A stretch of 64,000 nucleotides of DNA from Candidatus Woesearchaeota archaeon (GTDB lineage: Archaea; Nanobdellota; Nanobdellia; Woesearchaeales; DATGWN01): positions 8,171 through 72,170 of the forward strand of contig JBLKOU010000001.1 of assembly GCA_047603125.1 (NCBI GenBank). The letters run 5' to 3'. Numbering within the stretch: position 1 is the first letter of the stretch; every line of letters starts with the position of its first letter. This document shows positions 4,604 through 47,997 of the stretch, piece after piece. Both the position numbers and the translations under genes were made by a program. The notes beneath the pieces were generated by a model, which saw only the letters and a list, made by a program, of their open reading frames with translations, was not told the DNA's origin and did not search any database.

Positions 4604-7051
4604 ATGACTGACGATCAAATTCCAAAACCTCCTGCTATAGTAGAGACATTAATCGATTCTGAGTTATCTACCTCTTTTCTCTCGTATGCAATGAGTGTTA
4701 TTGTCAGTCGTGCTTTACCTGATGTTCGCGATGGGCTCAAACCCGTTCATAGAAGGATTTTGTATGCGATGCAGGATTTGGGTTTAGCTTCTAATCGTTC
4801 TTATAGAAAATCTGCGCGTATTGTTGGAGAAGTACTTGGTAAATATCACCCCCATGGTGATAGTGCAGTTTATGATTCGATGGTACGGCTTGCACAGCCG
4901 TTTTCGCTACGATACCCGCTAGTTGACGGACAGGGTAACTTTGGGTCCATGGATGGGGATAGAGCTGCTGCAATGCGTTATACAGAAGCAAGAATGGCAA
5001 AGGCTGCAGAGGCTATTTTAGAAGATATTGATAAAAAAACAGTTTCGTATGTACCTAATTTTGATGATTCGCTTGAAGAACCGTCCGTCTTGCCAGGGAA
5101 ATTTCCCTATTTATTGGTCAATGGTTCGACGGGAATTGCAGTAGGGATGGCAACAAATCTTGCTCCTCATAATCTAAAAGAAATAACAGCTGCATTAATT
5201 GCACTCATTGATAATCCTGAATTAGAATACACTGATTTAATGAATTACGTTACGGGTCCTGATTTTCCAACGGGTGCGCTTATTTGTGGGCGTTCGGGAA
5301 TAGCACAAGCGTATAAAACGGGGCATGGGAAAGTGTATGTTCGTGCCAAAACACATCAAGAAGTTGTTCATGCGCGTCAGGCAATTATTGTTGATGAAAT
5401 TCCTTATCAAGTAAATAAAGCGATGCTTATTGAGCAAATTGCAAATCTTGTAAAAGATAAAGTAATTGAAGGTATCTTTGACATTCGAGATGAGAGTGAT
5501 CGAAACGGCGTTCGCATGGTCATCGAATTAAAAAAGGATGGTCAGCCGGATATTATTTTAAATCAATTGTTTAAGCATACGCGTTTACAAGTGACTTTTA
5601 GTATTGCAAATTTATGTTTGGTTGATTCTGTTCCGAAAATTCTCACACTTAAAGAATTATTACAGCATCATATTGCGCATCGATTTGATGTAGTAACAAA
5701 ACGTATTGAGTTTGATCTGAAAAAAGCAAAGGATCGTGCGCATATTTTAGAGGGTCTGAAAAAAGCAATTGATGCAATTGATTTAACAATTAAAATTATT
5801 CGTGGCTCATCTTCAGTTGAGCAAGCGCGTAATGGATTAATGGAAGCACTTGAAATTGATCACATTCAAGCGCAAGCAATTTTGGATATGCGTTTACAAA
5901 AATTAACAGGCTTAGAGCGTGAAAAACTCATTGATGAGTTTAATCAATTGCTCTTATACATTGCAAATTTAGAAGAAATTTTAGCAGTTGATCAGAAACG
6001 ATATGACATTATAAAAGAAGAATTACAAGAACTCTCTGATAAATTTGGCGATGAGCGACGCACACAAATTATTGATGGCGATATTGGTGTGGATGATGAA
6101 GATTTAATTGAAGACGAAGATGTTGTAGTCACAATCACAAAAGATGGATATATTAAACGCATTGGTCTTGATACATACAGAGCACAAAATCGCGGCGGTC
6201 GAGGTATTGTTGGAACAACAACAAAAGATGATGATATTGTTAATTCACTTTTTGTTACGCGATCAAAAGCATTTATTTTGTTTTTCACAAATACGGGAAG
6301 GGTTCATTGGAAAAAAGTTTATCAAATACCTGAAGGTTCACGCCAAGCAAAAGGCCGTGCCATTGTTAATTTGCTTGCACTTGAAAAAGATGAATTCATT
6401 ACAGCAAGTATTCCTGTTCAAGAGTTCACAGAGGGTTCCTACTTAGTCTTATGTACAAAAAAAGGAACAGTGAAAAAATCATCCTTGCAAAGTTATGCAA
6501 GACCCCGTGCAGGTGGAATTCGTGCAATTGTCCTAAATGAGGGTGATGAGTTGATTCGTGCAGTTATGACAAACGGTGAAGATCAATTGCTCATTGCAAC
6601 AAAAAATGGACTTGCGGTGAGATTTCATGAAAAAGATGCACGTGAACTTGGTCGCGTGAGTCAGGGTGTGCGCGGTATTCGATTGCAAGAAAATGATCAT
6701 GTTATTGATATGGTTGTAGCAGCAGAGGATAAAACGCTTTTAACAATCACAGAAAATGGATATGGGAAACGAACACCAATTCCTGAGTATAGGCTCATTG
6801 GTCGTGGTGGAAAGGGGGTTATTAATATTAACTGTTCGCAGCGTAATGGCCCGGTTGTTGCAATCAAAGTTGTTGATGATGAGACTGGTTTATTATTTAT
6901 TTCTCAAAAGGGTATTGTTATGAGAACAAGAGCGGATCAAATTTCGGTTATTGGTCGAAATACGCAGGGTGTACGCATTATGCGTCTTGATGAAGATGAT
7001 ATTGTCGTTGCGTGTGCAAGAATTGTTCTTGAAGAAGTTTCAACGGATTGA
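4604..7051 (+). CDS. gyrA: DNA gyrase subunit A
   Basis: 815 aa; N-terminal signature ...[29 protein letters not shown], catalytic Tyr region, C-terminal beta-pinwheel repeats. Confidence 0.95.
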
Positions 7052-8596: not shown

Positions 8597-8645
8597 GGTG
8601 TTGATGAAGGTGTATAGGTTAAAAATGTTTTGGCAACATTAATAT

Positions 8646-12578: not shown

Positions 12579-12655
12579 AGTGTCAAACCCCTTAAGTGCT
12601 TCTTTTTCCTTTCTGATTTAAATGTTTTATTACAGGGGCTTCTTTCAATTTTTTT

Positions 12656-12700
12656 AAAAGAGCATGCAGATTTGGCTTAAGAGTCTCGCTTTGAGAATAT
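12656..12700 (+). repeat. repeat family A copy A1 (5' inverted-repeat module only: AAAAGAGCAYGCAGA..TCCCGCTTTGAGA)
   Basis: Matches the first 45 nt of copies at 15302, 31626 and the reverse complement of 26098-26141. Confidence 0.7.
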
Positions 12701-12749
12701 CATCCAACCGGGTTTGTGTAAAAAATCGAATTTTTATTTTACAGCAATA

Positions 12750-12860
12750 TTACGATTAATTCGGACTCGCGTATCTTGCCGACGAGGCGCTGCATAAATC
12801 GCGCCATGTCGTAATGAAGCATCAAGGTAATATTGCTTATCTCTTTTAATTTTTACACAA
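12750..12860. repeat. repeat family C module C1 (palindrome-rich, ends ..CAAGGTAATATTGCTTATCTCTTTTAATTTTT)
   Basis: Related to 40600-40730 and 42700-42850 (GCGCCAAGGnnTTATnnTTTTnTTTTG.CGCTAACTAA). Confidence 0.45.
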
Positions 12861-12923
12861 AGCCCATCCAACCATAAGGTTTATAAAGTCGTATTCCTGA
12901 AAAGGGTAAAAAGGGGGATTTTT

Positions 12924-14045
12924 ATGTTTAAAAAAGAACTAATTAACGTATTGTTTCTACTATTATTAGTAGTGTTAGCTTTCTGGTATTTCGGGGAAGT
13001 TAATGTCGATGATCAAGGACGTGCAATTTCTGCATATGACCCTTTTGGTCAACCAATGAAGACAGAATCGGTGTTTAGCGCTGTGTTTTTAATACCGATT
13101 CTTGCAGTGCTCTTATATACATTTATTATATTTCTTTCAGAAATTGCTGTACATAAACCGCACCTCGATAGATTTTTTGCAAAATTCTTTAGCTTTAAGC
13201 TTATTGTAATCTTTTTGTTCTTTGCAGTCTATTTATCAAAAATATTTGCAAATCAGCAAATGCTCTATATGGAACAATGGATCTTAATTCCAGCAGTAGC
13301 AATTGGATTTTGGTATGTAGGTCATATGTTTGAGCATTTGAAAGGAGATTATTTTGCACCATGGATTCGAAACCGAAGTCAACTTTGGGAAGACACACAT
13401 ATTATTGGTGAATGGTTGTTTAAAATTTGTGCAATTTTAATTTTGTTTGCGCTCTTTGTACCAGATCTCTTATTCGTGTTCTTAGTTGTACCACTTGTTG
13501 CTGTTTTGTTAATGATTTTTGTGTACAGTTTTGTTATTTTTTCAAAAGAACATGCACATCATAAACATCATGAAGAAGTGATGAAGCTAATTCATAAGTC
13601 GCATGATTCATCAACACATCATGTTGTTTCAAAAGCTGCAACGCCTCAAACTGTTGTTGAGCCTGAACCAAAAGTTGCTGTAAAAAAAGCAGCGAAGAAG
13701 GCAAAAAAGACACGCAAAAAGGCTGCAAAGAAAAAAACGACAAAGAAAAAGAAAACAACACGTAAAAAAGCGGTGACAAAAAAAGCAGCTGCAAAGCGTA
13801 CTACAAAGGCTGCGAAAAAAACTGCGAAAAAATCTTCTACGACTAAAAAAGCAAAGACGCGCAAAAAGGCTGCCAAAAAAACAACTGCAAAACGTTCGAC
13901 AAAGGTTGCAAAAAAAGCAGTGAAAAAAGCGTCTGTGCAAAAGAAGCGTACGTCAAAAAAAGCAAAAAAGGCTGTAACAAAAAAAGCAGCGAAAAAGCAA
14001 ACGAAAAAACGTGTTACAAAAAAAGCCGTTAAGAAACGGCGGTAA
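12924..14045 (+). CDS. polytopic membrane protein with histone-H1-like lysine/alanine-rich C-terminal tail
   Basis: GGGGG SD; ~6 TM helices then ~140 aa of KKAAKKTxKK repeats. Confidence 0.6.
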   Translation: MFKKELINVLFLLLLVVLAFWYFGEVNVDDQGRAISAYDPFGQPMKTESVFSAVFLIPILAVLLYTFIIFLSEIAVHKPHLDRFFAKFFSFKLIVIFLFFAVYLSKIFANQQMLYMEQWILIPAVAIGFWYVGHMFEHLKGDYFAPWIRNRSQLWEDTHIIGEWLFKICAILILFALFVPDLLFVFLVVPLVAVLLMIFVYSFVIFSKEHAHHKHHEEVMKLIHKSHDSSTHHVVSKAATPQTVVEPEPKVAVKKAAKKAKKTRKKAAKKKTTKKKKTTRKKAVTKKAAAKRTTKAAKKTAKKSSTTKKAKTRKKAAKKTTAKRSTKVAKKAVKKASVQKKRTSKKAKKAVTKKAAKKQTKKRVTKKAVKKRR

Positions 14046-15043: not shown

Positions 15044-15225
15044 ATTGAGAGTTTCGCGGGTATAATACCCCGGACTTTAGTCCGCAAACTCTCAATTCAA
15101 AAGTTCGCGATTAGGTGAGAAGCGTAATACCCCGTCCCTTTAGGGCGGGGATACCTAGAAAAATTCCTAGTTTTCTGGGTTTGAAAAACTTGTGTTTTTC
15201 AATTAGCTTCGAGCAGCGAACTTTT
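15044..15225. other. inverted-repeat-rich structured intergenic region (three local hairpins closed by a 10-bp long-range helix)
   Basis: IR 15044-15059/15082-15096; GC-rich hairpin 15130-15150; AU hairpin 15181-15202; AAAAGTTCGC (15099-15108) pairs with GCGAACTTTT (15216-15225). Confidence 0.3.
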
Positions 15226-15301
15226 GTTATTCTAGTCGAGAGTGCCATATATCTTTGTTTGAAAGCTATTTTTACTTGTTTTATGTAATAATTATTTTTT
15301 T

Positions 15302-15409
15302 AAAAGAGCACGCAGATTTTGCTCAAGAGTCCCGCTTTGAGATTTGTGCGAAAATTCGTCTGCAAACAATCGCCAAATTTTCTGATTTTACTGCAAGGTG
15401 CTCTTTTTT
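15302..15409 (+). repeat. repeat family A copy A2 (complete short form, ~108 nt, terminal inverted repeats AAAAGAGCACGCAG / CTGCAAGGTGCTCTTTT)
   Basis: Near-identical to 31626-31732; TIRs are reverse complements. Confidence 0.8.
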
Positions 15410-15474
15410 CTTATTCCTTGGACGGGGTTTTCTTTAGCAAAACATTTTAAAAGGGTAAATCTCTCAAGAATGCT

Positions 15475-25991: not shown

Positions 25992-26141
25992 AAAAAGAGC
26001 ACCTTGCAGCAAAATCAGAAAATTTAGTGATTGTTTGAAAGCTTCTTTCAAACTTGAGGATGAGAATCCGAAAAGTTGCAACTAATTTTTCGCATACTTC
26101 TCAAAGCGGGACTCTTGAGCCAAGTCTGCGTGCTCTTTTTT
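25992..26141 (-). repeat. repeat family A copy A4 (long form with ~45-nt internal hairpin module B inserted)
   Basis: Reverse complement carries both TIRs; internal perfect hairpin GTTTGAAAG-CTT-CTTTCAAAC; shares module B with 42619-42696. Confidence 0.8.
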
Positions 26142-26238
26142 GAAAACAATTATTGGATGAAGTCGGACGAAAAATAAAAGAATATACGCATGCACAAGCA
26201 ATAATTTTATAAACACATATCAGGCAGCTCATACTACG

Positions 26239-27888
26239 ATGAGTAAAGCAGAGCAATTAGCAACCAAGCAGCGTGAAATTGGTGTTGCAGAATTTTTTGC
26301 ACGAAATAGACATCTTCTTGGATTTGATAATAAAGTAAAAGCACTCATGACAACAATTAAAGAGGCTGTCGATAACTCCCTTGACGCATGTGAGGAGGCA
26401 GAAATACTTCCTGAAATTATTGTTGAAGTCATTGACATGGGCAATGATCGTTTTAAAGTAGTTATCGAGGATAATGGCCCTGGTATTGTGAAAAAACAAA
26501 TTCCAAAAATCTTTGCAAAACTCTTATATGGTTCGAAGTTTCATTCATTAAAAATGAGCCGTGGTCAACAAGGTATTGGTATCTCTGCATCTGTTTTATA
26601 TGGTCAGCTTACAACGGGCAGACCCGCAAAAATTACATCGAAAACGGGACCAACAGATCCTGCGCATTATTATGAATTGAAATTAAACACAAAAACAAAC
26701 GAGCCTGAAATTGTCACTGACACAATTATAGATTGGCCAAAGGAAAGTGGAACAAAAATTGAAATTGATTTGGAGGCAACATATCAAAAAGGCGCACGCT
26801 CGATTGATACGTATTTAAAACAAACAGCCATCACAAATCCGCATTGTACAATTATTTATACAAATCCGAAAGCTGAGCAAATTATTTTTCCACGAGCAAT
26901 TGAAGTTATTCCGGCAGCTGCTCAAGAAATTAAACCGCACCCATATGGGGTTGAATTAGGAACATTGCAGTCGATGTTAGAAATTACACCGGCAAAAACA
27001 GTTCAATCATTTTTACAAACTGAATTTTCACGTGTAAGCGCACAAGTTGCAAAAGAAATTTGTGAGAACGCAGCTTTATTGCCAAATACATCTCCGAAGA
27101 AAATAACGCGGGATCAAGCAGAAAAAATTATTCGTGCAATTGCCAAAACTAAGATTATGGCGCCGCCAACTGACTGTATTTCTCCAATTGGTCAAGATCA
27201 GCTAGAAAAAGGGTTGAAAAAAGAAATTAATGCGGAATTTTATACAACGATTACACGCTCACCAAGTGTGTATCGAGGAAACCCTTTTATTATAGAAGTT
27301 GCAATTGCCTACGGAGGAGATCAGCCTGCAGATCAGCTTGCAAATGTGATGCGATTTGCAAACCGAGTTCCACTTTTATATCAACAAGGAGGCTGTGCGG
27401 TAAATAAAGCAGTCTCAAGTTTAAATTGGAAGCCGTATGGGTTACAACAGAGTAGAGGTTCTGTACCTGCAGGTCCATTGACAATTGCTGTTCATATCGC
27501 TTCGGTCTGGGTTCCGTTTACTTCAGAGAGTAAGGAAGCGATTGCGCATTATCCTGAAATTATAAAGGAAATGAAATTAGCATTACAAGAAGTTGGAAGA
27601 AAACTGGGAACATATATTAATAAGAAAAAACGTGTTGGTGTTGAATTAAAAAAACGCTCCTACATTCAAAAATATATCCCACATGTAAGTGCTGCGTTGT
27701 TAAAATTATTAGAATTACCTGATGATAAAAAGGCAGATTTAGAAGAAAAGCTCGCTGCAATTTTAGAAAAAACGCGAGGAGAAATTGAAGAGCTTGCTTT
27801 TGATGCATCAAAAAATAAAGATTTTGACAAAGAATTTGCATCGATAGGAAGAAATGATCAAGAGGAGGAAACAGAAGATGAGTTCTAA
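26239..27888 (+). CDS. top6B: DNA topoisomerase VI subunit B
   Basis: GHKL ATPase Bergerat motifs ([20 protein letters not shown]), transducer domain. Confidence 0.95.
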
Positions 27889-28975
27889 GCAACCAAAGGC
27901 ATCATTAAAGCCAATTCAAGATGTAGCAAATCAAATTTACACAAATATTCTTGCATATAAACCGCCTATTTTATCGATGCCACTTCGTTCACTTTCAAAT
28001 GTATCGTATAATCCGAATGTTGGGTTTTTTGAATTAACAGGAAAATATAAGGATAGAAAATTAACGGCCTCAACAATTAAAACATTTGCACAAACTTTGC
28101 ACATGCTTACACTTGCAAAAGAATTAGCACTAGCAGCTGATGAGGCAACAAAAAGAGAAGCGTATTATATTTCAAAAAATTGGGGTGAAGCTAAGTTTAA
28201 TGAGCAGCCAGAATCCGATCTTGTCATGGATGATGTTGAGGCGATGCTTAGTGTAAACCGAGAAGTTATTGGTTTTATTCCAGAAGAGAAAGGTGGTGCT
28301 GTTGCTGGAAAGCTTGTTGTTCTTGATAAAGATGTCGATTCAGGTGAGCAGCTTCGCATTGATTGTACGAAATTTGGAAGTGGGGCATATTCTATTCCGA
28401 GCAAAGTTGAAGATCTTGGATTTGAGACTGATGCAACATTTATTTTAGCAATTGAAACGAGTGGTATGTTTCAACGATTAGCAAAACAAAATTATTGGAA
28501 AAAGGCAAATTGTATTCTCGTTGCAATGGGTGGTGTTCCAACAAGGGCAACACGGCGTTTTATTAGACGTTTATCAGATGAGAAAAATTTGCCAGTTTAT
28601 GTTTTTACTGATGGAGATTTTTATGGGTATTTTAATATTTATAGAACATTAAAAGTCGGTTCTGGAAATGCAGCACATATTAACGAATTTTTCTGTGTGC
28701 CAAATGCGCGTTTTATTGGTGTAACGCCCCAAGATATTATTGATTATAATTTACCAACGCATGCACTCAAAGATATTGATATTAAGCGCGGTCGAGATGC
28801 AGCAAAAAACGATCCATTTGTCCAAACGCATAAAGAATGGCAGCAAGCAATTGAGCAGATGACAAAGCTCAAAAAGCGTGTAGAGCAGCAAGCGTTTGCC
28901 AAGTATGGGCTTAATTATGTTATCGACACGTATTTACCTGAGAAGTTAGGCAATAAGAAAAAATGGTTGCCTTGA
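27854..28975 (+). CDS. top6A: DNA topoisomerase VI subunit A (Spo11-like)
   Basis: TOPRIM/5Y-CAP with [13 protein letters not shown]...[14 protein letters not shown]; may start at ATG 27878. Confidence 0.95.
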
Positions 28976-31575: not shown

Positions 31576-31625
31576 GATAGGGTAGTGCATTATCAAGAAC
31601 GGTTTCATCCAATAATTGTTTTCAG

Positions 31626-31732
31626 AAAAGAGCACGCAGACTTGACTCAAGAGTCCCGCTTTGAGAAGTATGCGAAAATTCGCTTGTATGAATCACCGAA
31701 TTTTCTAATTATACTGCAAGGTGCTCTTTTTT
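31626..31732 (+). repeat. repeat family A copy A3 (complete short form with TIRs)
   Basis: ~90% identical to 15302-15409. Confidence 0.8.
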
Positions 31733-31765
31733 CTTATTTTTTGGATGAAGCCATCAAGAACCAAA

Positions 31766-31779
31766 TGTTTATAAATAAA
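31766..31779 (+). promoter_or_regulatory. candidate archaeal TATA box for tRNA-Arg
   Basis: TTTATAAATA centred ~30 nt upstream of tRNA 5' end. Confidence 0.3.
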
Positions 31780-31802
31780 CTGATTTTGCAAATAAATATA
31801 AG

Positions 31803-31877
31803 GGACCAGTAGCTCAGTCTGGATAGAGCGACGGCCTTCTAAGCCGTAGGTCGGGGGTTCAAATCCCCTCTGGTTCA
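31803..31877 (+). tRNA. tRNA-Arg (anticodon TCT)
   Basis: Cloverleaf by eye: acceptor GGACCAG/CUGGUUC, D arm GCUC..GAGC, anticodon stem ACGGC/GCCGU with loop CUUCUAA, T arm GGGGG-UUCAAAU-CCCCU; no encoded CCA. Confidence 0.85.
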
Positions 31878-31909: not shown

Positions 31910-32281
31910 TTAATATTCGATGCAAGTTATTCCTGGAATTTTTTCAAAATGTTTTTTGTTTCTCGTAAGAATTTTAGAAACACCGTTTGTGAGGTATGCA
32001 CTTGCAATAAGACAATCAAATCTTCCAATTTCGTCTCCTTTTTTCTGAAGTTCCTTGAATATATATGAGGCAAGCTTTATAGACTCAAAGCAGTTTGGTA
32101 TCTGCGTCGTATGCTTTTCAAAATCGAGTATGAGCATTTCTTCTTTCTTTGTTTTAGTTGCGCTCAAGCATTCAAAAAAAACAAGGTGGCTCATTGCCAA
32201 AACTTCAGTCATTTCTAGTGATTCTTGTGAAATGTTTTTTCTTTGTAAATCGATGAGAAAACTAGAGTCAACTCCGATCAT
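31910..32281 (-). CDS. vapC: PIN-domain ribonuclease toxin VapC
   Basis: MIGVDSSFLIDL (N-terminal Asp) and GRFDCLIASAYLTNGVSKILTRNKKHF (C-terminal Asp) PIN signature; start set at internal ATG 32281. Confidence 0.7.
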   Translation of the reverse strand: MIGVDSSFLIDLQRKNISQESLEMTEVLAMSHLVFFECLSATKTKKEEMLILDFEKHTTQIPNCFESIKLASYIFKELQKKGDEIGRFDCLIASAYLTNGVSKILTRNKKHFEKIPGITCIEY

Positions 32282-32648
32282 TGAGTTCACTCTCCATTTT
32301 TTTTCGATTATATTGGATTCTGTTGTTAAAATCGTTACCTTCTTTTTTGGATAAGGTTCCATAAAACTTATGCAAAAATTTATTAGCAGGTTGCGTCCTT
32401 TTTGTTAAGTCTAAAATTACTTGTGAGTAACTTCGTAACCCCTTTATTTGATTTAATGCCTCAATTGCCTGGGCGTTGAGTTCTATGGTCTTTTGGTTAT
32501 AATTGACTTGACTATCTTGGAGTATTATGTCTGAAAAACTTTTTTTTCCCTTTTTTCTTTTCAGATATTTGTACGCCTCATCCTTGATTGTAATATTTTT
32601 TACTATAACAAGTACTTGTGCAAGTAAAGAGTTATATATTTTATGCAA
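32268..32648 (-). CDS. vapB: VapB-like antitoxin (overlaps vapC start by 14 nt)
   Basis: ITIKDEAYKYLKRKKGKKSFSDIILQ matches the archaeal antitoxin motif (TIxxDEVYExLKxLKG.xSFSDVI); TTG start at 32648 uncertain. Confidence 0.45.
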   Translation of the reverse strand: MHKIYNSLLAQVLVIVKNITIKDEAYKYLKRKKGKKSFSDIILQDSQVNYNQKTIELNAQAIEALNQIKGLRSYSQVILDLTKRTQPANKFLHKFYGTLSKKEGNDFNNRIQYNRKKMESELNDRS

Positions 32649-32804: not shown

Positions 32805-33125
32805 TTGAAGAATGGTATGGAATTAATAGAACAATATGTGAGAGGCATACGAGTTCAATTTCTGGGATTTTCTTTGTTTCTTATGCTCATTTCTGCGCTT
32901 TTTTTTCTCATTCGTGAACCATTGGTTGGAGGATTGATTCTTACCTGGAGTTTACTCTATTTGCTTTGTTGGCACATATTCAAAAAACCAGGAAACGGGC
33001 GATGGTTATTTGCACTTATTCTTGCGATTCTCGCGACACCTTTGATTCCTATTGGCACAATTTTTGCTTTGTTTGTTCTTGTTCGGTTATTATCAAGGGA
33101 AGTACGTGATTATTATTTTCAATAG
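32805..33125 (+). CDS. small membrane protein (3 TM), hypothetical
   Basis: Hydrophobic 106-aa ORF. Confidence 0.35.
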   Translation: MKNGMELIEQYVRGIRVQFLGFSLFLMLISALFFLIREPLVGGLILTWSLLYLLCWHIFKKPGNGRWLFALILAILATPLIPIGTIFALFVLVRLLSREVRDYYFQ

Positions 33126-33234
33126 AGACGCCGGAATCTTGCAATTTAGTGCCAGGTGTTTTTGTGTCTTCTTGTTTGGATGGGAACTTGAGTAATCCAA
33201 AAGATTCTTAAAGGAAAATTAACCAAATATATGT

Positions 33235-40574: not shown

Positions 40575-40599
40575 TTTTGGAGATTTAGTCTAAGACAGA

Positions 40600-40730
40600 A
40601 GTAAATTCTAATGCGACGATTCTGAACAGTGGTTCATCTTGCGAATTTCTCCGGCGCAGAGCTTCGCGAAATTCTGATTATGCGCCAAGGCATTATAATT
40701 TTTTATTGTCGCTAACTAATTTTTTGACTG
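40600..40730. repeat. repeat family C module C2 (contains GGCGCA...TGCGCC inverted repeat and GCGCCAAGGCATTATAATTTTTTATTGTCGCTAACTAA tail)
   Basis: Homologous to 42700-42850 and partly 12750-12860. Confidence 0.5.
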
Positions 40731-42599: not shown

Positions 42600-42618
42600 A
42601 TGTAACGCCATTCTTAGA

Positions 42619-42696
42619 AAAAAGAGCACCTTGGCGAAAGGTTAGAAAATTCAGTGATTGGTTGAAAGCTTCTTTCAAACTTGAGGATGAGAATCC
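42619..42696 (-). repeat. repeat family A copy A5 (partial: one TIR plus hairpin module B)
   Basis: Matches 25992-26080 over ~78 nt, then continues into family C module. Confidence 0.7.
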
Positions 42697-42699
42697 GAA

Positions 42700-42850
42700 A
42701 AGTTGCTAGTAAATAGTCGACGACATTAATTTCGCATAACTCGGCGATTTCACGACAGCTGTCAAGTTTGCAAAATCAGAGCTGCATGAATCGCTCTGAT
42801 TTTTGATTTTACGCCAAGGAGTTATGCTTTTCTTTTGCCGCTAACTAAAA
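42700..42850. repeat. repeat family C module C3 (contains 10-bp inverted repeat AAATCAGAGC/GCTCTGATTT)
   Basis: Tail TTACGCCAAGGAGTTATGCTTTTCTTTTGCCGCTAACTAAAA matches C2. Confidence 0.5.
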
Positions 42851-42903
42851 TGTGAAAGGTTTTTTAATACATTTTTTAAAGAAAAGTTAGATTCACTAGA
42901 ATA

Positions 42904-44229: not shown

Positions 44230-47200
44230 ATGGTCAGGAGTTTTCGATTATGTATGCACACGCAAGAAGAATTCACCATAGATAGGCAGCGCTATGATAG
44301 CGCAAATGAGGAGCGTTTACTCTATCGTGCAAAGGATGGGATTAGCGAGCAGCTTGTTAGAGAAATCTCAAAAAGCAAAAATGAGCCTGAGTGGATGCTT
44401 CAAAAGCGATTAAAGGGTTTTGAGCTGTTTTTAAAGATGGAAAATCCAACATGGGGGCCATCGCTTGAAAAATTAGATTTATCAAAAATTTCTTACTTTT
44501 TGCGTCCAGATGCAAAGAAAAATGCTACGAGTTGGGATGATGTCCCTGATGATATCAAAAATACATTTGATAAGCTGGGAATTCCAAAAGCAGAACGAGA
44601 AGCATTGGCTGGAGTTGGTGCACAATATGATTCTGAAACCGTGTATCATAATTTACAAAAAGAATTACAAGATCAAGGAGTGGTGTTTATTGATTGCGAT
44701 GAGGCTGTTCACAAATATCCTGATTTAGTAAAAAAATATTTTATGACAAGCTGTGTTCCTATGAATTTACATCGATATAGTGCGCTTCATGCTGCTGTTT
44801 GGTCGGGAGGGACATTTATTTATATTCCTAAGGGAGTCAAAGTAGAAAAGCCATTGCAAGCATACTTTCGTATGAATGCACGAAAAGGTGGGCAATTTGA
44901 GCATACGCTTATTATTGTTGATGAGGGTGCGGAGGTTTCTTATATTGAAGGGTGTTTTGGGGCAGGGACGCAGATAACGACAAATCCTGATTATAAGCCA
45001 ATTGAGCAAATTCGCTCAGGTGAAAAAATACTGACAAGCGAAGGAGAGTTTAAGCATTCAAAAGATATTCAAGCACAGCCATATACGGGTAAAATGGCAA
45101 AAATCCAACTCTGGGGTGATACGACGCAAACAATTAACGTGACGCAAGAACATCCATTTTTATATGTTGATAAAAAGCATGCTCGTGAGAAAAATAAGCA
45201 GTTTACTCCTCGCTGGAACATGCCAGCATATTTTCAAAAAGGAGATTATTTATGTATGCCGATTAATCAAGTTGTAAAACACAACGACGAACATACATTT
45301 GTGTATTTACGCCATATTGATGGGAAACGTGAACGCGTAGAATGGCCAGTTCAGGTGTCTGCAGAATTATTTCGGTTAATAGGGTACTATTTAGCACAAG
45401 GAAGTGTGAGTAGTAATGCGTATTTGAATTTTTCATTTCATTTTCAAGAGCGAGAGTATATTGAAGATGTGAAAAGATGTTTGAAAAAAGTATTTGGGAT
45501 AAAAAAAATACTGGAAATGCACCATAAAAAAAATAATGGGACGAGTTTAGTCGTTTGTTCTGTTGATTTGGCAAGAATCTTTAAAGAATTTGGAAAGAGC
45601 GCAAATACAAAATCATTGCCTGCATGGGTGATTTATGAAAAACCGCATCTACAAAAAGAACTGATTAAGGGCTGGTTTAGAGGGGATGGAAATTATTTTA
45701 AGAAAAAAACAGTTTCAGGGTTAAAAGAAGCAATACGAATAAATACGGTGAGTGAAAAATTGGCAAAACAGGCTCGTGATTTATTATTGCGTCAAGGCAT
45801 AGTTTCCTTTATTAATTCACAAGATCGTCAATCGACAAATAGACAAACTATGTATACTATAGGAATTGGCGGTGAATTTCTTCCCAAAATGGGGGAGCTT
45901 GTTGGAATTTCAATTTCAAAAACACTGAATGGGAAAAAGCGTGCGAGTATGTTCGGGATTGACAAGAAATTTGCATATATTCCTATACGTTCGATTACAT
46001 TTGAACAAGTAACAAATTATCCGGTATATAATTTTGGTGTGACTGATCATCAAACATTTACTGCTGGTGGCGTTGCCGTTCATAATTGCTCAGCTCCGGT
46101 ATACACTGAGAATTCGCTCCATGCAGGATGTGTAGAAATTCATGTCCTCAAAGGTGCAAGAGCAAGATATTCAAGTATTGAGAATTGGTCCAAAAATACG
46201 TATAATCTTAATACAAAGCGTGCCGTTGTTCATGATGATGGAATAATTGAATGGATTAACGGCAATTTAGGTTGCCTAACAGATTCATCAAAGGTATTTA
46301 CTAATCCCCGCGGTCCAAAAAATATATCTGCAATTTCACCGGGAGACAAAGTGCTCAGCTATGATTTTCAAGCAAAAAAAATTGTTCCTGGCACGGTTAA
46401 GCAAATGGTTTATAATGGGGATAGGGAGATTTTTGAAATAACGGCTGCAGGAAGAAGTTTAGAAGCAACTCAAAATCATCCTTTTTTAACATTAAGTAAG
46501 ACTCAAGATAATCCAAAAAAAAATTTTTATTCATATCAATGGAAACCATTGTCTCAGTTACAAGTGGGCGATATGATTTGTGTTACAAAAAACATTCCAA
46601 ACAAAGGCGAGTCTTTTCGTATACCTGCATTATCAGAATATTTACACGTTCAATCCAAAAATCAATATGCGTCTTTTTCCATGTCAACCAAACACCTCCA
46701 TAATTCGAAGATTACTATTCCAAAAAAGACCAATCCTGATTTGATGTGGCTATTAGGATTATTAATAGGGGATGGTTTTGTGGATGTTTCGCAAAATAAA
46801 ATTAATATTGCAACACATTATCTTGAAGATTATAGAGAATCGCAACTCATACGAATTCTTAAAGAGCAATTTAATTATACTGTAACTGAGAAAAAAGAAC
46901 GTTTTGTCATTATTAATTCGAAAAAACTTTGTGAATTATTTACAGTTCTTGGAGTATCGGGTACAGCAAAAACAAAACGTATACCTAATTGGGTTTATAC
47001 GCTTCCTGAAATTGAGATGGAGGCTTTTTTGGGAGGCTATTTTGATGCTGATGGACACGTACAAAAAAATGGTGCGTATTTAACAAGTTGTAATAAATCT
47101 TTATTAGAAGATTTTCGTTTATTGGCAATTCAATTAGGGTATGGTATTTCAAGAATATTTAAACATATGTCTGAGGGTACGAGAACAATTTTAGGGGTTG

Positions 47201-47997
47201 ATTGTATTGCTTCAGATAGTTTTCGATTGTTACTCAGTGGAGAAAAAATTTGTTCACTTGATTCGCGTTCGAAAAAGAAAAAGGCAAAGCTTTTACAAAT
47301 TACGTCAAAAAGAAATTTTCGAACAGCAAAGAATCAAAATTTCTCTTCAAAAACAACGGATGAAATTGGCTTTGCAAGAATTGATGCTATTATAAAAAAA
47401 GGTATACGTCCCACATTTGATATTGAGGTTGAAAAATATCACAATTTTATTGCTAATGGGCTGATTGTACATAATAGCGGAGTCACGATGCTCTACCCGG
47501 GTTCAATGTTGATGGGTGATCGTTCAAAATCTGATTTTATTGGTATTGCGCTAGCTAATAAAGATCAAAACCAAGATACTGGTTGTAAAATTATTCATAT
47601 CGGTGAGCAGACATCATCAACGATTACTTCCAAATCAATTAGTCTTAATGGCGGTATTTCAACATATCGTGGATTAGTGAGTATCCGAAAAGGTGCGAAA
47701 GGAGCAGCAACTAGTGTGGAGTGTGATGCGCTCATGATTGATAATGAGAGTCAATCAAATACATATCCGTATATGGATATTCATGAAAAAGATGTTGACG
47801 TTGCACATGAGGCTACTGTAGGAAAAATAAGTGAAGAGCAAATATTTTATTTAATGAGTCGTGGGTTGAGTGAAGAAGTTGCAAAGCAAATGATAGTTTC
47901 TGGTTTTATAGAACCAATTGTCAAAGAATTGCCACTTGAGTATGCAGTTGAATTAAATAAACTCATTGAATTAGAAATGGAGGGGAATTTAGGATGA
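44230..47997 (+). CDS. sufB: Fe-S cluster assembly protein SufB interrupted by two inteins
   Basis: Extein segments match SufB (DEGAEVSYIEG|CSAPVYTENSLHAG..., IEWINGNLG|SGVTMLYPGSMLMGD..., C-terminal SRGLSEEVAKQMIVSGF); 1255 aa = ~476 extein + 378 + 401 intein residues. Confidence 0.9.
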   Translation: MVRSFRLCMHTQEEFTIDRQRYDSANEERLLYRAKDGISEQLVREISKSKNEPEWMLQKRLKGFELFLKMENPTWGPSLEKLDLSKISYFLRPDAKKNATSWDDVPDDIKNTFDKLGIPKAEREALAGVGAQYDSETVYHNLQKELQDQGVVFIDCDEAVHKYPDLVKKYFMTSCVPMNLHRYSALHAAVWSGGTFIYIPKGVKVEKPLQAYFRMNARKGGQFEHTLIIVDEGAEVSYIEGCFGAGTQITTNPDYKPIEQIRSGEKILTSEGEFKHSKDIQAQPYTGKMAKIQLWGDTTQTINVTQEHPFLYVDKKHAREKNKQFTPRWNMPAYFQKGDYLCMPINQVVKHNDEHTFVYLRHIDGKRERVEWPVQVSAELFRLIGYYLAQGSVSSNAYLNFSFHFQEREYIEDVKRCLKKVFGIKKILEMHHKKNNGTSLVVCSVDLARIFKEFGKSANTKSLPAWVIYEKPHLQKELIKGWFRGDGNYFKKKTVSGLKEAIRINTVSEKLAKQARDLLLRQGIVSFINSQDRQSTNRQTMYTIGIGGEFLPKMGELVGISISKTLNGKKRASMFGIDKKFAYIPIRSITFEQVTNYPVYNFGVTDHQTFTAGGVAVHNCSAPVYTENSLHAGCVEIHVLKGARARYSSIENWSKNTYNLNTKRAVVHDDGIIEWINGNLGCLTDSSKVFTNPRGPKNISAISPGDKVLSYDFQAKKIVPGTVKQMVYNGDREIFEITAAGRSLEATQNHPFLTLSKTQDNPKKNFYSYQWKPLSQLQVGDMICVTKNIPNKGESFRIPALSEYLHVQSKNQYASFSMSTKHLHNSKITIPKKTNPDLMWLLGLLIGDGFVDVSQNKINIATHYLEDYRESQLIRILKEQFNYTVTEKKERFVIINSKKLCELFTVLGVSGTAKTKRIPNWVYTLPEIEMEAFLGGYFDADGHVQKNGAYLTSCNKSLLEDFRLLAIQLGYGISRIFKHMSEGTRTILGVDCIASDSFRLLLSGEKICSLDSRSKKKKAKLLQITSKRNFRTAKNQNFSSKTTDEIGFARIDAIIKKGIRPTFDIEVEKYHNFIANGLIVHNSGVTMLYPGSMLMGDRSKSDFIGIALANKDQNQDTGCKIIHIGEQTSSTITSKSISLNGGISTYRGLVSIRKGAKGAATSVECDALMIDNESQSNTYPYMDIHEKDVDVAHEATVGKISEEQIFYLMSRGLSEEVAKQMIVSGFIEPIVKELPLEYAVELNKLIELEMEGNLG
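44953..46086 (+). mobile_element. SufB intein 1 with LAGLIDADG homing-endonuclease domain
   Basis: Starts Cys (CFGAGTQ), ends HN before +1 Cys (CSAPVY); DOD motifs LIGYYLAQGSV and IKGWFRGDGNY. Confidence 0.85.
46273..47475 (+). mobile_element. SufB intein 2 with LAGLIDADG homing-endonuclease domain
   Basis: Starts Cys (CLTDSS), ends GLIVHN before +1 Ser (SGVTM); DOD motifs LLGLLIGDGFVD and FLGGYFDADGHV. Confidence 0.85.

Follow-up and report, generated by a model that had tools for sequence, protein, structure and literature searches.

A family of small structured transposons (MITEs) beside promoters in a Woesearchaeota genome

Introduction

The DPANN archaea have small, compact genomes and their mobile DNA is little known. 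A census of MITEs gives very high densities in DPANN genomes, with 105 MITEs/Mb in a Woesearchaea genome (retrieved passages of PMC11602168). As described in those passages and in the ones retrieved from PMC10969869, archaeal MITEs (SM1-SM4 of Sulfolobus solfataricus and the DPANN catalogue) are small, non-coding, multicopy and intergenic, carry terminal inverted repeats (TIRs) and target duplications, and depend on mobilisation in trans. The family described here agrees with them in its small size, its lack of coding capacity and its multiple intergenic copies; it has TIRs and target duplications too, and is probably also mobilised in trans.

A second point of comparison is the IS903 group (IS5 family), with which our family shares a 9-bp target duplication and which its GGC-type termini (GGCTT) resemble. 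IS903B has the inverted repeat GGCTTTGTTGAATAAATC and a 9-bp direct repeat (PMC10569121), and the target motif of IS903 is WTTYA-N9-TRAAW (PMC2577343, Table 1). Unlike IS903, however, the elements reported here have a DPANN archaeon as host, their interior is a conserved three-helix fold, and one sub-family (copies F and H) has other ends.

The family also resembles bcr1 of the Bacillus cereus group, Correia of Neisseria and the pneumococcal RUP, BOX and SPRITE repeats in its stable folds, with compensatory changes between sub-families, in its terminator-like tails and in its position near regulatory regions. The target duplication is TTTAT in bcr1 and TA in Correia. For SPRITE and BOX, and for the clustering of copies, the likeness is taken from the retrieved passages of PMC10969869. 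All of these repeats differ from our family in their ends and in the lengths of their duplications, and their hosts are bacteria with sigma-70 promoters, whereas the family described here lies in a register fixed to the putative archaeal BRE/TATA. A more distant comparison, by analogy only, is with the LTR retrotransposons Ty3 and Ty1, which integrate at Pol III genes, and Tf1, which integrates at Pol II promoters, all three being tethered through protein contacts. These elements and our family alike lie at a constant distance from a core promoter to which TBP and a TFIIB-family factor bind, and both spare coding sequence, but the pattern seen here can be explained by a simple sequence preference.

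Here we follow up an earlier note, made from the letters of the DNA alone, which had reported a dispersed repeat in five copies and read it either as a non-autonomous transposable element or as a family of structured small RNAs. We conclude that the repeat is a family of small non-coding transposons (MITEs) of ~150-195 bp, a new family of a known kind, which is unusual for MITEs in its fixed promoter register and its deeply conserved fold. The whole explanation, namely a structured MITE family that is moved by a DDE transposase with 9-bp duplications and inserted at the upstream edge of promoters, is given a probability of about 0.8.

The window and its genes

The window is the whole stretch of DNA analysed, 64 kb of a chromosomal contig from a Candidatus Woesearchaeota MAG (a DPANN archaeon). 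It has a G+C content of 35-41%, and the listed genes occupy ~88.5% of it. Archaeal housekeeping genes are present (Topo VI A and B, gyrase A, ScpB, L31e, S19e and RIO1), together with three tRNAs, SufBCD/SufS and an RLI-type ABC protein. The Topo VI B protein matches MFT4311642.1 at 100% identity and the runner-up match reaches only 78%, which marks the host as a DPANN archaeon with no close relative among sequenced organisms.

Gyrase A (4604-7051, plus strand) and both Topo VI subunits (26239-28975, plus strand) are encoded on this same Woesearchaeota contig. The SufB gene (44230-47997, plus strand; 1255 aa) is split by two inteins with LAGLIDADG homing-endonuclease domains.

Copies of the repeat in the window

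All five loci of the earlier note hold the repeat. Its 41-nt 5′ motif lies at 12656, 15302, 26099 (minus strand) and 31626 with 0-3 mismatches, 0 matches being expected in shuffles, and the 3′ arm CTGCAAGGTGCTCTTTTTTCT matches at 15391, 25989 (minus strand), 31714 and 42616 (minus strand). The count of five was too low, however. A sequence profile of copies A, B and C recovers eight intergenic members, and the window holds at least nine in all, with I, F, G and H added. Every one of them is intergenic, as had been claimed, and they occur in both orientations among unrelated housekeeping genes. Diverged sub-families thus belong to the family that were beyond the reach of the earlier note. The members and the perfect target-site duplications are as follows (bit scores are those of the covariance model described below).

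12638 to 12700, plus strand: copy D, a 5′ fragment with TIR, P1 5′ arm and P2
12701 to 12709: left target-site duplication of copy I, CATCCAACC, 9/9 identical to 12865-12873
12710 to 12864, plus strand: copy I, complete member of a diverged sub-family, 48 bits with the model from A, B and C only
12865 to 12873: right target-site duplication of copy I, CATCCAACC, then ATAAGG and TTTATAAA, the predicted promoter of gene 12924
15277 to 15429, plus strand: copy A, core intact, outer termini diverged, 170 bits
25971 to 26164, minus strand: copy C, intact long form of 194 nt, 174 bits
31592 to 31600: left target-site duplication of copy B, ATCAAGAAC, 9/9 identical to 31753-31761 with zero offset from the TIR ends
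31601 to 31752, plus strand: copy B, intact short form of 152 nt, 185 bits
31753 to 31761: right target-site duplication of copy B, ATCAAGAAC, then CAAATG (predicted BRE) and TTTATAAA (predicted TATA of tRNA-Arg)
33097 to 33187, plus strand: copy G, 3′ half only, decayed, with TTGGATGGGAAC at its end, E 5e-14 after profile iteration, gene 33235 being downstream
~40585 to 40719 (outer limits approximate), plus strand: copy H, diverged, of the sub-family of F, match 40602-40709, 26.8 bits, E 6e-4
42614 to 42720, minus strand: copy E, truncated long form with 3′ arm, P3 3′ side and 41-nt insert, abutting F, 88% identity
42714 to 42848, plus strand: copy F, full-length diverged member, match 42714-42847, 58 bits

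Copy A, the locus of the earlier note, lies between the divergent SOD and AAA-ATPase genes. VIT1 and Topo VI B, likewise divergent, flank copy C, and copy B has a TauE-like gene and tRNA-Arg on its two sides. Element lengths are 152-194 nt, below the bound of ~500 bp for prokaryotic MITEs, the short form being ~150 nt and the form with a 41-nt insert 194 nt. The elements have no coding capacity. They contain only spurious ORFs, and the KEHADxxQESRFE frames, which are indeed present (15255-15437, 31585-31812 and, on the minus strand, 26082-26216) should not be called genes in annotation; their peptides have no homologue among 5.8 billion proteins. Identities are graded (B-C 90%, A-B 80%, D ~66%, G ~58%), spanning 90% to under 60% across the family, and D, E and G are truncated relics.

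Copies cluster or abut at 12.6-12.9 kb and at 42.6-42.85 kb. At the first of these places only a 5′ arm, at 12656, had been noticed. Copy D is indeed a 5′ fragment, but the complete, diverged copy I stands directly beside it. We rejected D as a full decayed copy: the covariance model shows that its apparent 3′ part is the separate element I, and since this neighbour has its own TIR and duplication, D is a 5′ fragment only. Downstream of the MscS gene (42600-42900), the truncated E on the minus strand meets the complete F on the plus strand head to head. A faint likeness between the sequence that follows F (GTGAAAGGTTTTTTAATAC) and the end that E lacks suggests an insertion of F into E.

Two neighbouring loci were recorded in passing. 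The ORF at 12924-14045 (plus strand; 373 aa) consists of Lys/Ala-rich tandem repeats (AKKAAKK-like) without a Pfam match and may encode a basic nucleic-acid-binding protein. A VapB-like antitoxin and PIN-domain toxin pair (31910-32648, minus strand) adjoins copy B, between tRNA-Arg and tRNA-Cys.

Termini, duplications and internal architecture

The complete copies had been put at ~108 nt, but the unit is longer. When the copies were aligned with their flanks, homology ran ~25 nt past the former limits on both sides, to the coordinates given above for A, B and C. At the outer ends, 12 nt form a pair of inverted repeats (GGTTTCATCCAA...TTGGATGAAGCC for copy B, GACTTCATCCAA...TTGGATGAAGCC for copy C), and the true termini of the family, from B and C, read GGYTTCATCCAA / TTGGATGAAGCC. 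In copy I the TIR extends to 16-17 bp (GGGTTTGTGTAAAAAAT / reverse complement GGCTTTGTGTAAAAAT). TIRs are thus 12-17 bp long and start GG(C/T/G)TT, and next inward comes a T-rich spacer, both spacers being T-rich on the same strand. The ends formerly taken for the TIR, AAAAGAGCAC / GTGCTCTTTT, are perfect 10-nt inverted repeats as stated, but they constitute an internal stem, P1, and not the terminus, because the terminal 12-nt inverted repeats with their direct repeats lie outside it.

The target-site duplications are 9 bp long. They are perfect in B and I, match at 7/9 positions in C (TTTTCGTCC / TTATCATCC) and at 5/9 in A; the chance of one 9/9 match at a fixed offset is ~7e-6, given the base composition. 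The earlier note had made its MITE reading depend on defined boundaries and target-site duplications, and both are found in B and I. The F/H sub-family has different ends (TTAGTTAGCG...) and a common 3′ tail (...CGCTAACTAA), and no clear target duplication was seen for it. Compared with the IS903B inverted repeat, the end of I (GGCTTTGTGTAAAAAT) agrees at 12/16 positions, the first 8 nt being identical, and the end of B at 11/16; this likeness is suggestive only, because the compared stretch is short and AT-rich.

Inside the spacers, the P1 stem comprises 10 bp and, beyond a 3-nt AAG bulge, a further 4 bp; its bulge motif CAAGG is invariant. Within P1 lie two hairpins, the small P2 on the 5′ side (CTCAAG...TTTGAG) and the central P3 (GAAAATTCG / CGAATTTTC). 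The corresponding P1 is GCAATATTAC-GAT / ATC-AAG-GTAATATTGC in copy I and GCATAACTC-GGCG / CGCC-AAG-GAGTTATGC in copy F, whose P3 is AAAATCAGAGC / GCTCTGATTTT. The 41-nt insert of copy C (AACTTTTCGG...GCTTTC) sits inside the P3 loop and is found in C and E only, where it is identical at 40/41 positions. It contains the inserted hairpin that had been described, GTTTGAAAG-AAG-CTTTCAAAC, at 26033 and 42660. Because the insert is bounded by AAC...AAC microhomology, insertion or deletion could each explain the two forms.

Known RNA motifs were also compared by eye. Readings of the AAG bulge as a K-turn or as a bulge-helix-bulge were rejected, since the flanking bases and their order do not fit. An archaeal C/D box sRNA, defined by box C (RUGAUGA) 5′ and box D (CUGA) 3′ at ~50-70 nt apart, was rejected too: CTGA precedes an imperfect GGATGA, and order and spacing are wrong on both strands.

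Position relative to promoters

The motif nAAAnn followed by TTTWWAAA starts 33-40 nt before most start codons in the window and before the tRNA genes (for example at 8630, 15440, 16883, 25960, 29799, 30799, 31763 and 32658). Judged by position and consensus, this is the predicted archaeal BRE/TATA, and most mRNAs would therefore be leaderless. Next to five element ends, namely the 3′ ends of copies A, B, C and I and the 5′ end of D, a TATA-like octamer begins after exactly 9 nt, corresponding to the duplication, and a further 6 nt, the predicted BRE (AAAACA, CAAATG, TAAACA, ATAAGG and AAAACA); for D, the putative TATA is that of the PPIase gene on the minus strand. The density of such octamers in intergenic DNA is 0.007 per position and strand. 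Under uniform intergenic insertion, the exact register of 5/10 ends has P ~4e-9, a value that is indicative only because the octamer pattern was defined after the data were seen. Copy G is offset from the register by 2 nt, F lies 17 nt (not 9) from the next predicted BRE, and the limits of H are uncertain. Insertion at the edge of promoters is not described for archaeal MITEs in the retrieved passages of PMC10969869 and PMC11602168.

The 9-mers at the element ends are mutually unrelated and the same promoter consensus is found at genes without an element; therefore the promoter is the host's and not the element's. For this reason we rejected the conserved tail past the 3′ end as a part of the element, this being the generic promoter consensus. 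Of the five precisely placed copies, four sit between divergent promoters.

On the promoter side, the flanks of the duplicated 9 bp (TAAAC, CAAAT, AAAAC, ATAAG and AAAAC) have the RAA core of the TRAAW half of the IS903 motif in 5/5 cases. The opposite flanks fit the palindromic target motif inconsistently, so it is the promoter side alone that fits. A preference for an A-rich flank can by itself explain the promoter-edge placement, and this is the economical reading: A-rich intergenic hexamers are mostly predicted BREs, and a flank preference of the transposase would then yield the observed register with no need for contact with the transcription machinery. We also considered a bolder version, which we hold to be doubtful, in which the transposition machinery recognises the archaeal pre-initiation region (a TBP/TFB-bound or bent BRE/TATA) and integrates in fixed register at its upstream edge, the P1-P2-P3 fold then being required for the reaction or expressed as RNA. 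Such recognition, if true, would be the archaeal counterpart of promoter-tethered integration in eukaryotes.

A fold conserved across sub-families

A covariance model was built solely from copies A, B and C with the P1-P2-P3 structure and was run unfiltered over the window. It scored F at 58, I at 48 and H at 27 bits, with everything else at 25 bits or below; the sequence-only profile, by comparison, gave F 13 bits. Nearly all stem positions of F, I and H differ from A, B and C, and the pairing is kept. In a six-sequence alignment that was itself fitted to the covariance model, 92% of cells pair and 31/41 base pairs are altered on both sides. Its covariation score of 0.68 compares with 0.20 in shuffled alignments (0/500 reach it) and 0.07-0.14 with the partners slid, where 38-46% of cells were paired. 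Covariation is strong in all five helices, and single-sequence folds of I, F and H independently give the same helices. No significant covariation was present in a first five-sequence MAFFT alignment; it became clear only after the diverged full-length members were added. Unpaired motifs are conserved as well, namely CAAGG, the P3 loop ATRAATC and the joining (J) segment YTRATTWTR. A three-helix interior conserved in this way, with invariant unpaired motifs, is more than ordinary MITEs need.

The covariation that the earlier note had asked for is therefore abundant, and its suggestion of structured small RNAs stands as regards structure. As regards RNA, the evidence falls short, because there is no preference for one strand and the majority of copies sit between divergent promoters. 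Were these genes for small non-coding RNAs, they would yield the three-way P1-P2-P3 fold and the U-run behind it as their functional product, with the repeats as paralogues, or as MITE-borne RNAs turned functional. Covariation in every helix and the invariance of the unpaired motifs speak for such genes. So do T-runs right after P1 in every sub-family, oligo-T being the archaeal termination signal, the T-richness of both spacers on the same strand and the core of copy A, which was kept though the termini decayed and whose outer helix still pairs through G.U. However, copies A, B, C and I lack a conserved BRE/TATA at the proper distance upstream of P1, the two strands differ little in how well they fold (F is more stable on the minus strand), and fragments D, E and G are unable to form the fold. 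G.U against A.C pairs in the stems number 13 to 7, which is indecisive, and Rfam returned no match to copies B and C but noise even at E up to 10 (at the gathering threshold it found the three tRNAs of the window only). Gene paralogy would, moreover, leave the TIRs and 9-bp duplications unexplained. With the divergent promoters around four of the five precisely placed copies also against them, we consider RNA genes unlikely.

Could the copies instead have been retained as cis-acting modules, insulators or terminators upstream of core promoters, or regulator sites, their position reflecting selection? The constant spacing to the putative TATA would agree with exaptation of this kind, two T6 runs point toward the downstream gene in A, B and C, a dimeric factor could bind the palindromic ends, and copy A has kept its core in place. 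No regulon is apparent, however, because the downstream genes are unrelated (AAA ATPase, VIT1, tRNA-Arg, PPIase and the Lys-rich protein). Copy D has the opposite orientation relative to its promoter, and divergent regions have no upstream transcription to terminate. Furthermore, it is the 9 bp of the duplication that fix the exact register, and these are the footprint of an insertion reaction and not of later selection. Exaptation is, in our judgement, distinctly improbable.

Under our preferred reading of a mobile MITE family, the fold may act at the level of DNA. Between copies A and B there are 3/67 mismatches in the inner core and ~28/98 in the termini. That the core of A was kept while its termini diverged is unexpected for a dead selfish copy, and may point to selection, or to gene conversion, acting on the core. 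With modest confidence we rank a DNA-level role first, either in bringing the two ends into synapsis, the element being shorter than the DNA persistence length, or in palindrome correction.

Likely mode of mobilisation

The TIRs and 9-bp repeats, dispersal among unrelated genes, graded identities and relics together fit a mobile family and not a local duplication. In the mechanism that we propose, a DDE transposase, most likely an IS903-like member of the IS5 family whose gene would lie elsewhere in the genome, would bind the element termini and insert the element through 9-bp staggered cuts, on the 9 bp directly upstream of a BRE/TATA core promoter. The choice of site is probably caused by a preference of this transposase for an A-rich flank beside the duplicated 9 bp, like that in the IS903 motif; such sites would also spare the core promoter in a genome that is ~88% coding. 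The hairpin-rich interior would join the ends of a very short element or permit palindrome correction. A Pfam scan of ~60 ORFs found no transposase within the window; the putative autonomous partner and its IS903 assignment are inferred from a terminus of ~16 nt, a half-site and the length of the duplication.

A derivative of a single-strand transposon (IS200/IS605-type, palindrome-associated), or of another hairpin-recognising system, would use the sub-terminal stems as recognition sites. In copy A the sub-terminal hairpins with their bulges are better conserved than the extreme ends, and the spacers are strand-asymmetric, both as such a system would have it. IS200/IS605 elements, however, have neither terminal inverted repeats nor target duplication, whereas two copies here have perfect 9-bp duplications beside TIRs of 12-17 bp, and a conserved tetranucleotide 5′ of the elements is absent. 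We therefore disfavour an IS200/IS605 palindrome-associated element or REP, and regard this origin as very improbable.

Local segmental duplication, which the earlier note thought more likely should copies exist in this window alone, or a chance likeness of AT-rich promoter regions, can be put aside as next to impossible: copies are indeed known from the 64-kb window alone and the sequence past the 3′ end is similar in A, B and C, but that tail is the generic promoter consensus, also present at element-free genes, the flanks are otherwise unrelated, and the motif counts (0 chance matches expected for the core motifs), the 9-bp duplications and the covariance-model matches refute both.

If the MITE reading and the other findings hold, the genome contains a dense family, with ~140 copies per Mb should the window be typical. 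Each precisely placed copy would flag the upstream edge of a BRE/TATA and so serve as a natural core-promoter marker. The family would also offer a tractable case for how short transposons choose promoter-edge sites, and would open the way to asking why an elaborate fold persists in a selfish element whose sub-families have diverged.

Distribution in other genomes

Public collections were searched for further copies. Exact-word scans of 185,579 species-representative genomes (GTDB) gave 0 matches for one core word, and a second scan of the GTDB species genomes gave 55 matches, to an 18-mer only and attributable to chance, one of them inside a Woesearchaeota coding region. The 5′ hairpin word had one match in the JGI metagenomes and two in IMG/VR, all in unrelated coding sequence, and the 3′ arm had 0 matches in IMG/VR. 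The three JGI and IMG/VR matches are the same coding sequence, a phage gene as judged by its presence on IMG/VR contigs. BLASTN against plasmid and phage records found no match to the family, and a profile search found no member at the corresponding loci of the closest relatives. These relatives (75-78% Topo VI B identity) have different neighbours at the loci, and their spacers upstream of Topo VI B measure 25-400 nt. The family is therefore lineage-restricted and without copies in any public collection searched. Its density in the window (~140/Mb) is like that of the Woesearchaea genome in the census (retrieved passages of PMC11602168).

A structured region beside copy A

Between the SOD gene and copy A lies a further region (15098-15226, plus strand) with a very stable, multi-branch fold. 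An 11-bp closing stem (CAAAAGTTCGC / GCGAACTTTTG) encloses three hairpins, one of them G+C-rich, and the RNA MFE is -55.7 kcal/mol, with a z of -7.3 for the plus strand and of -6.5 for the minus strand. The region is single-copy, with no other copy in the window and no Rfam match, and we regard it as a candidate unannotated ncRNA or other structured element. A 12-nt inverted repeat (15126-15137 / 15420-15431, 11/12) joins it to the 3′ end of copy A.
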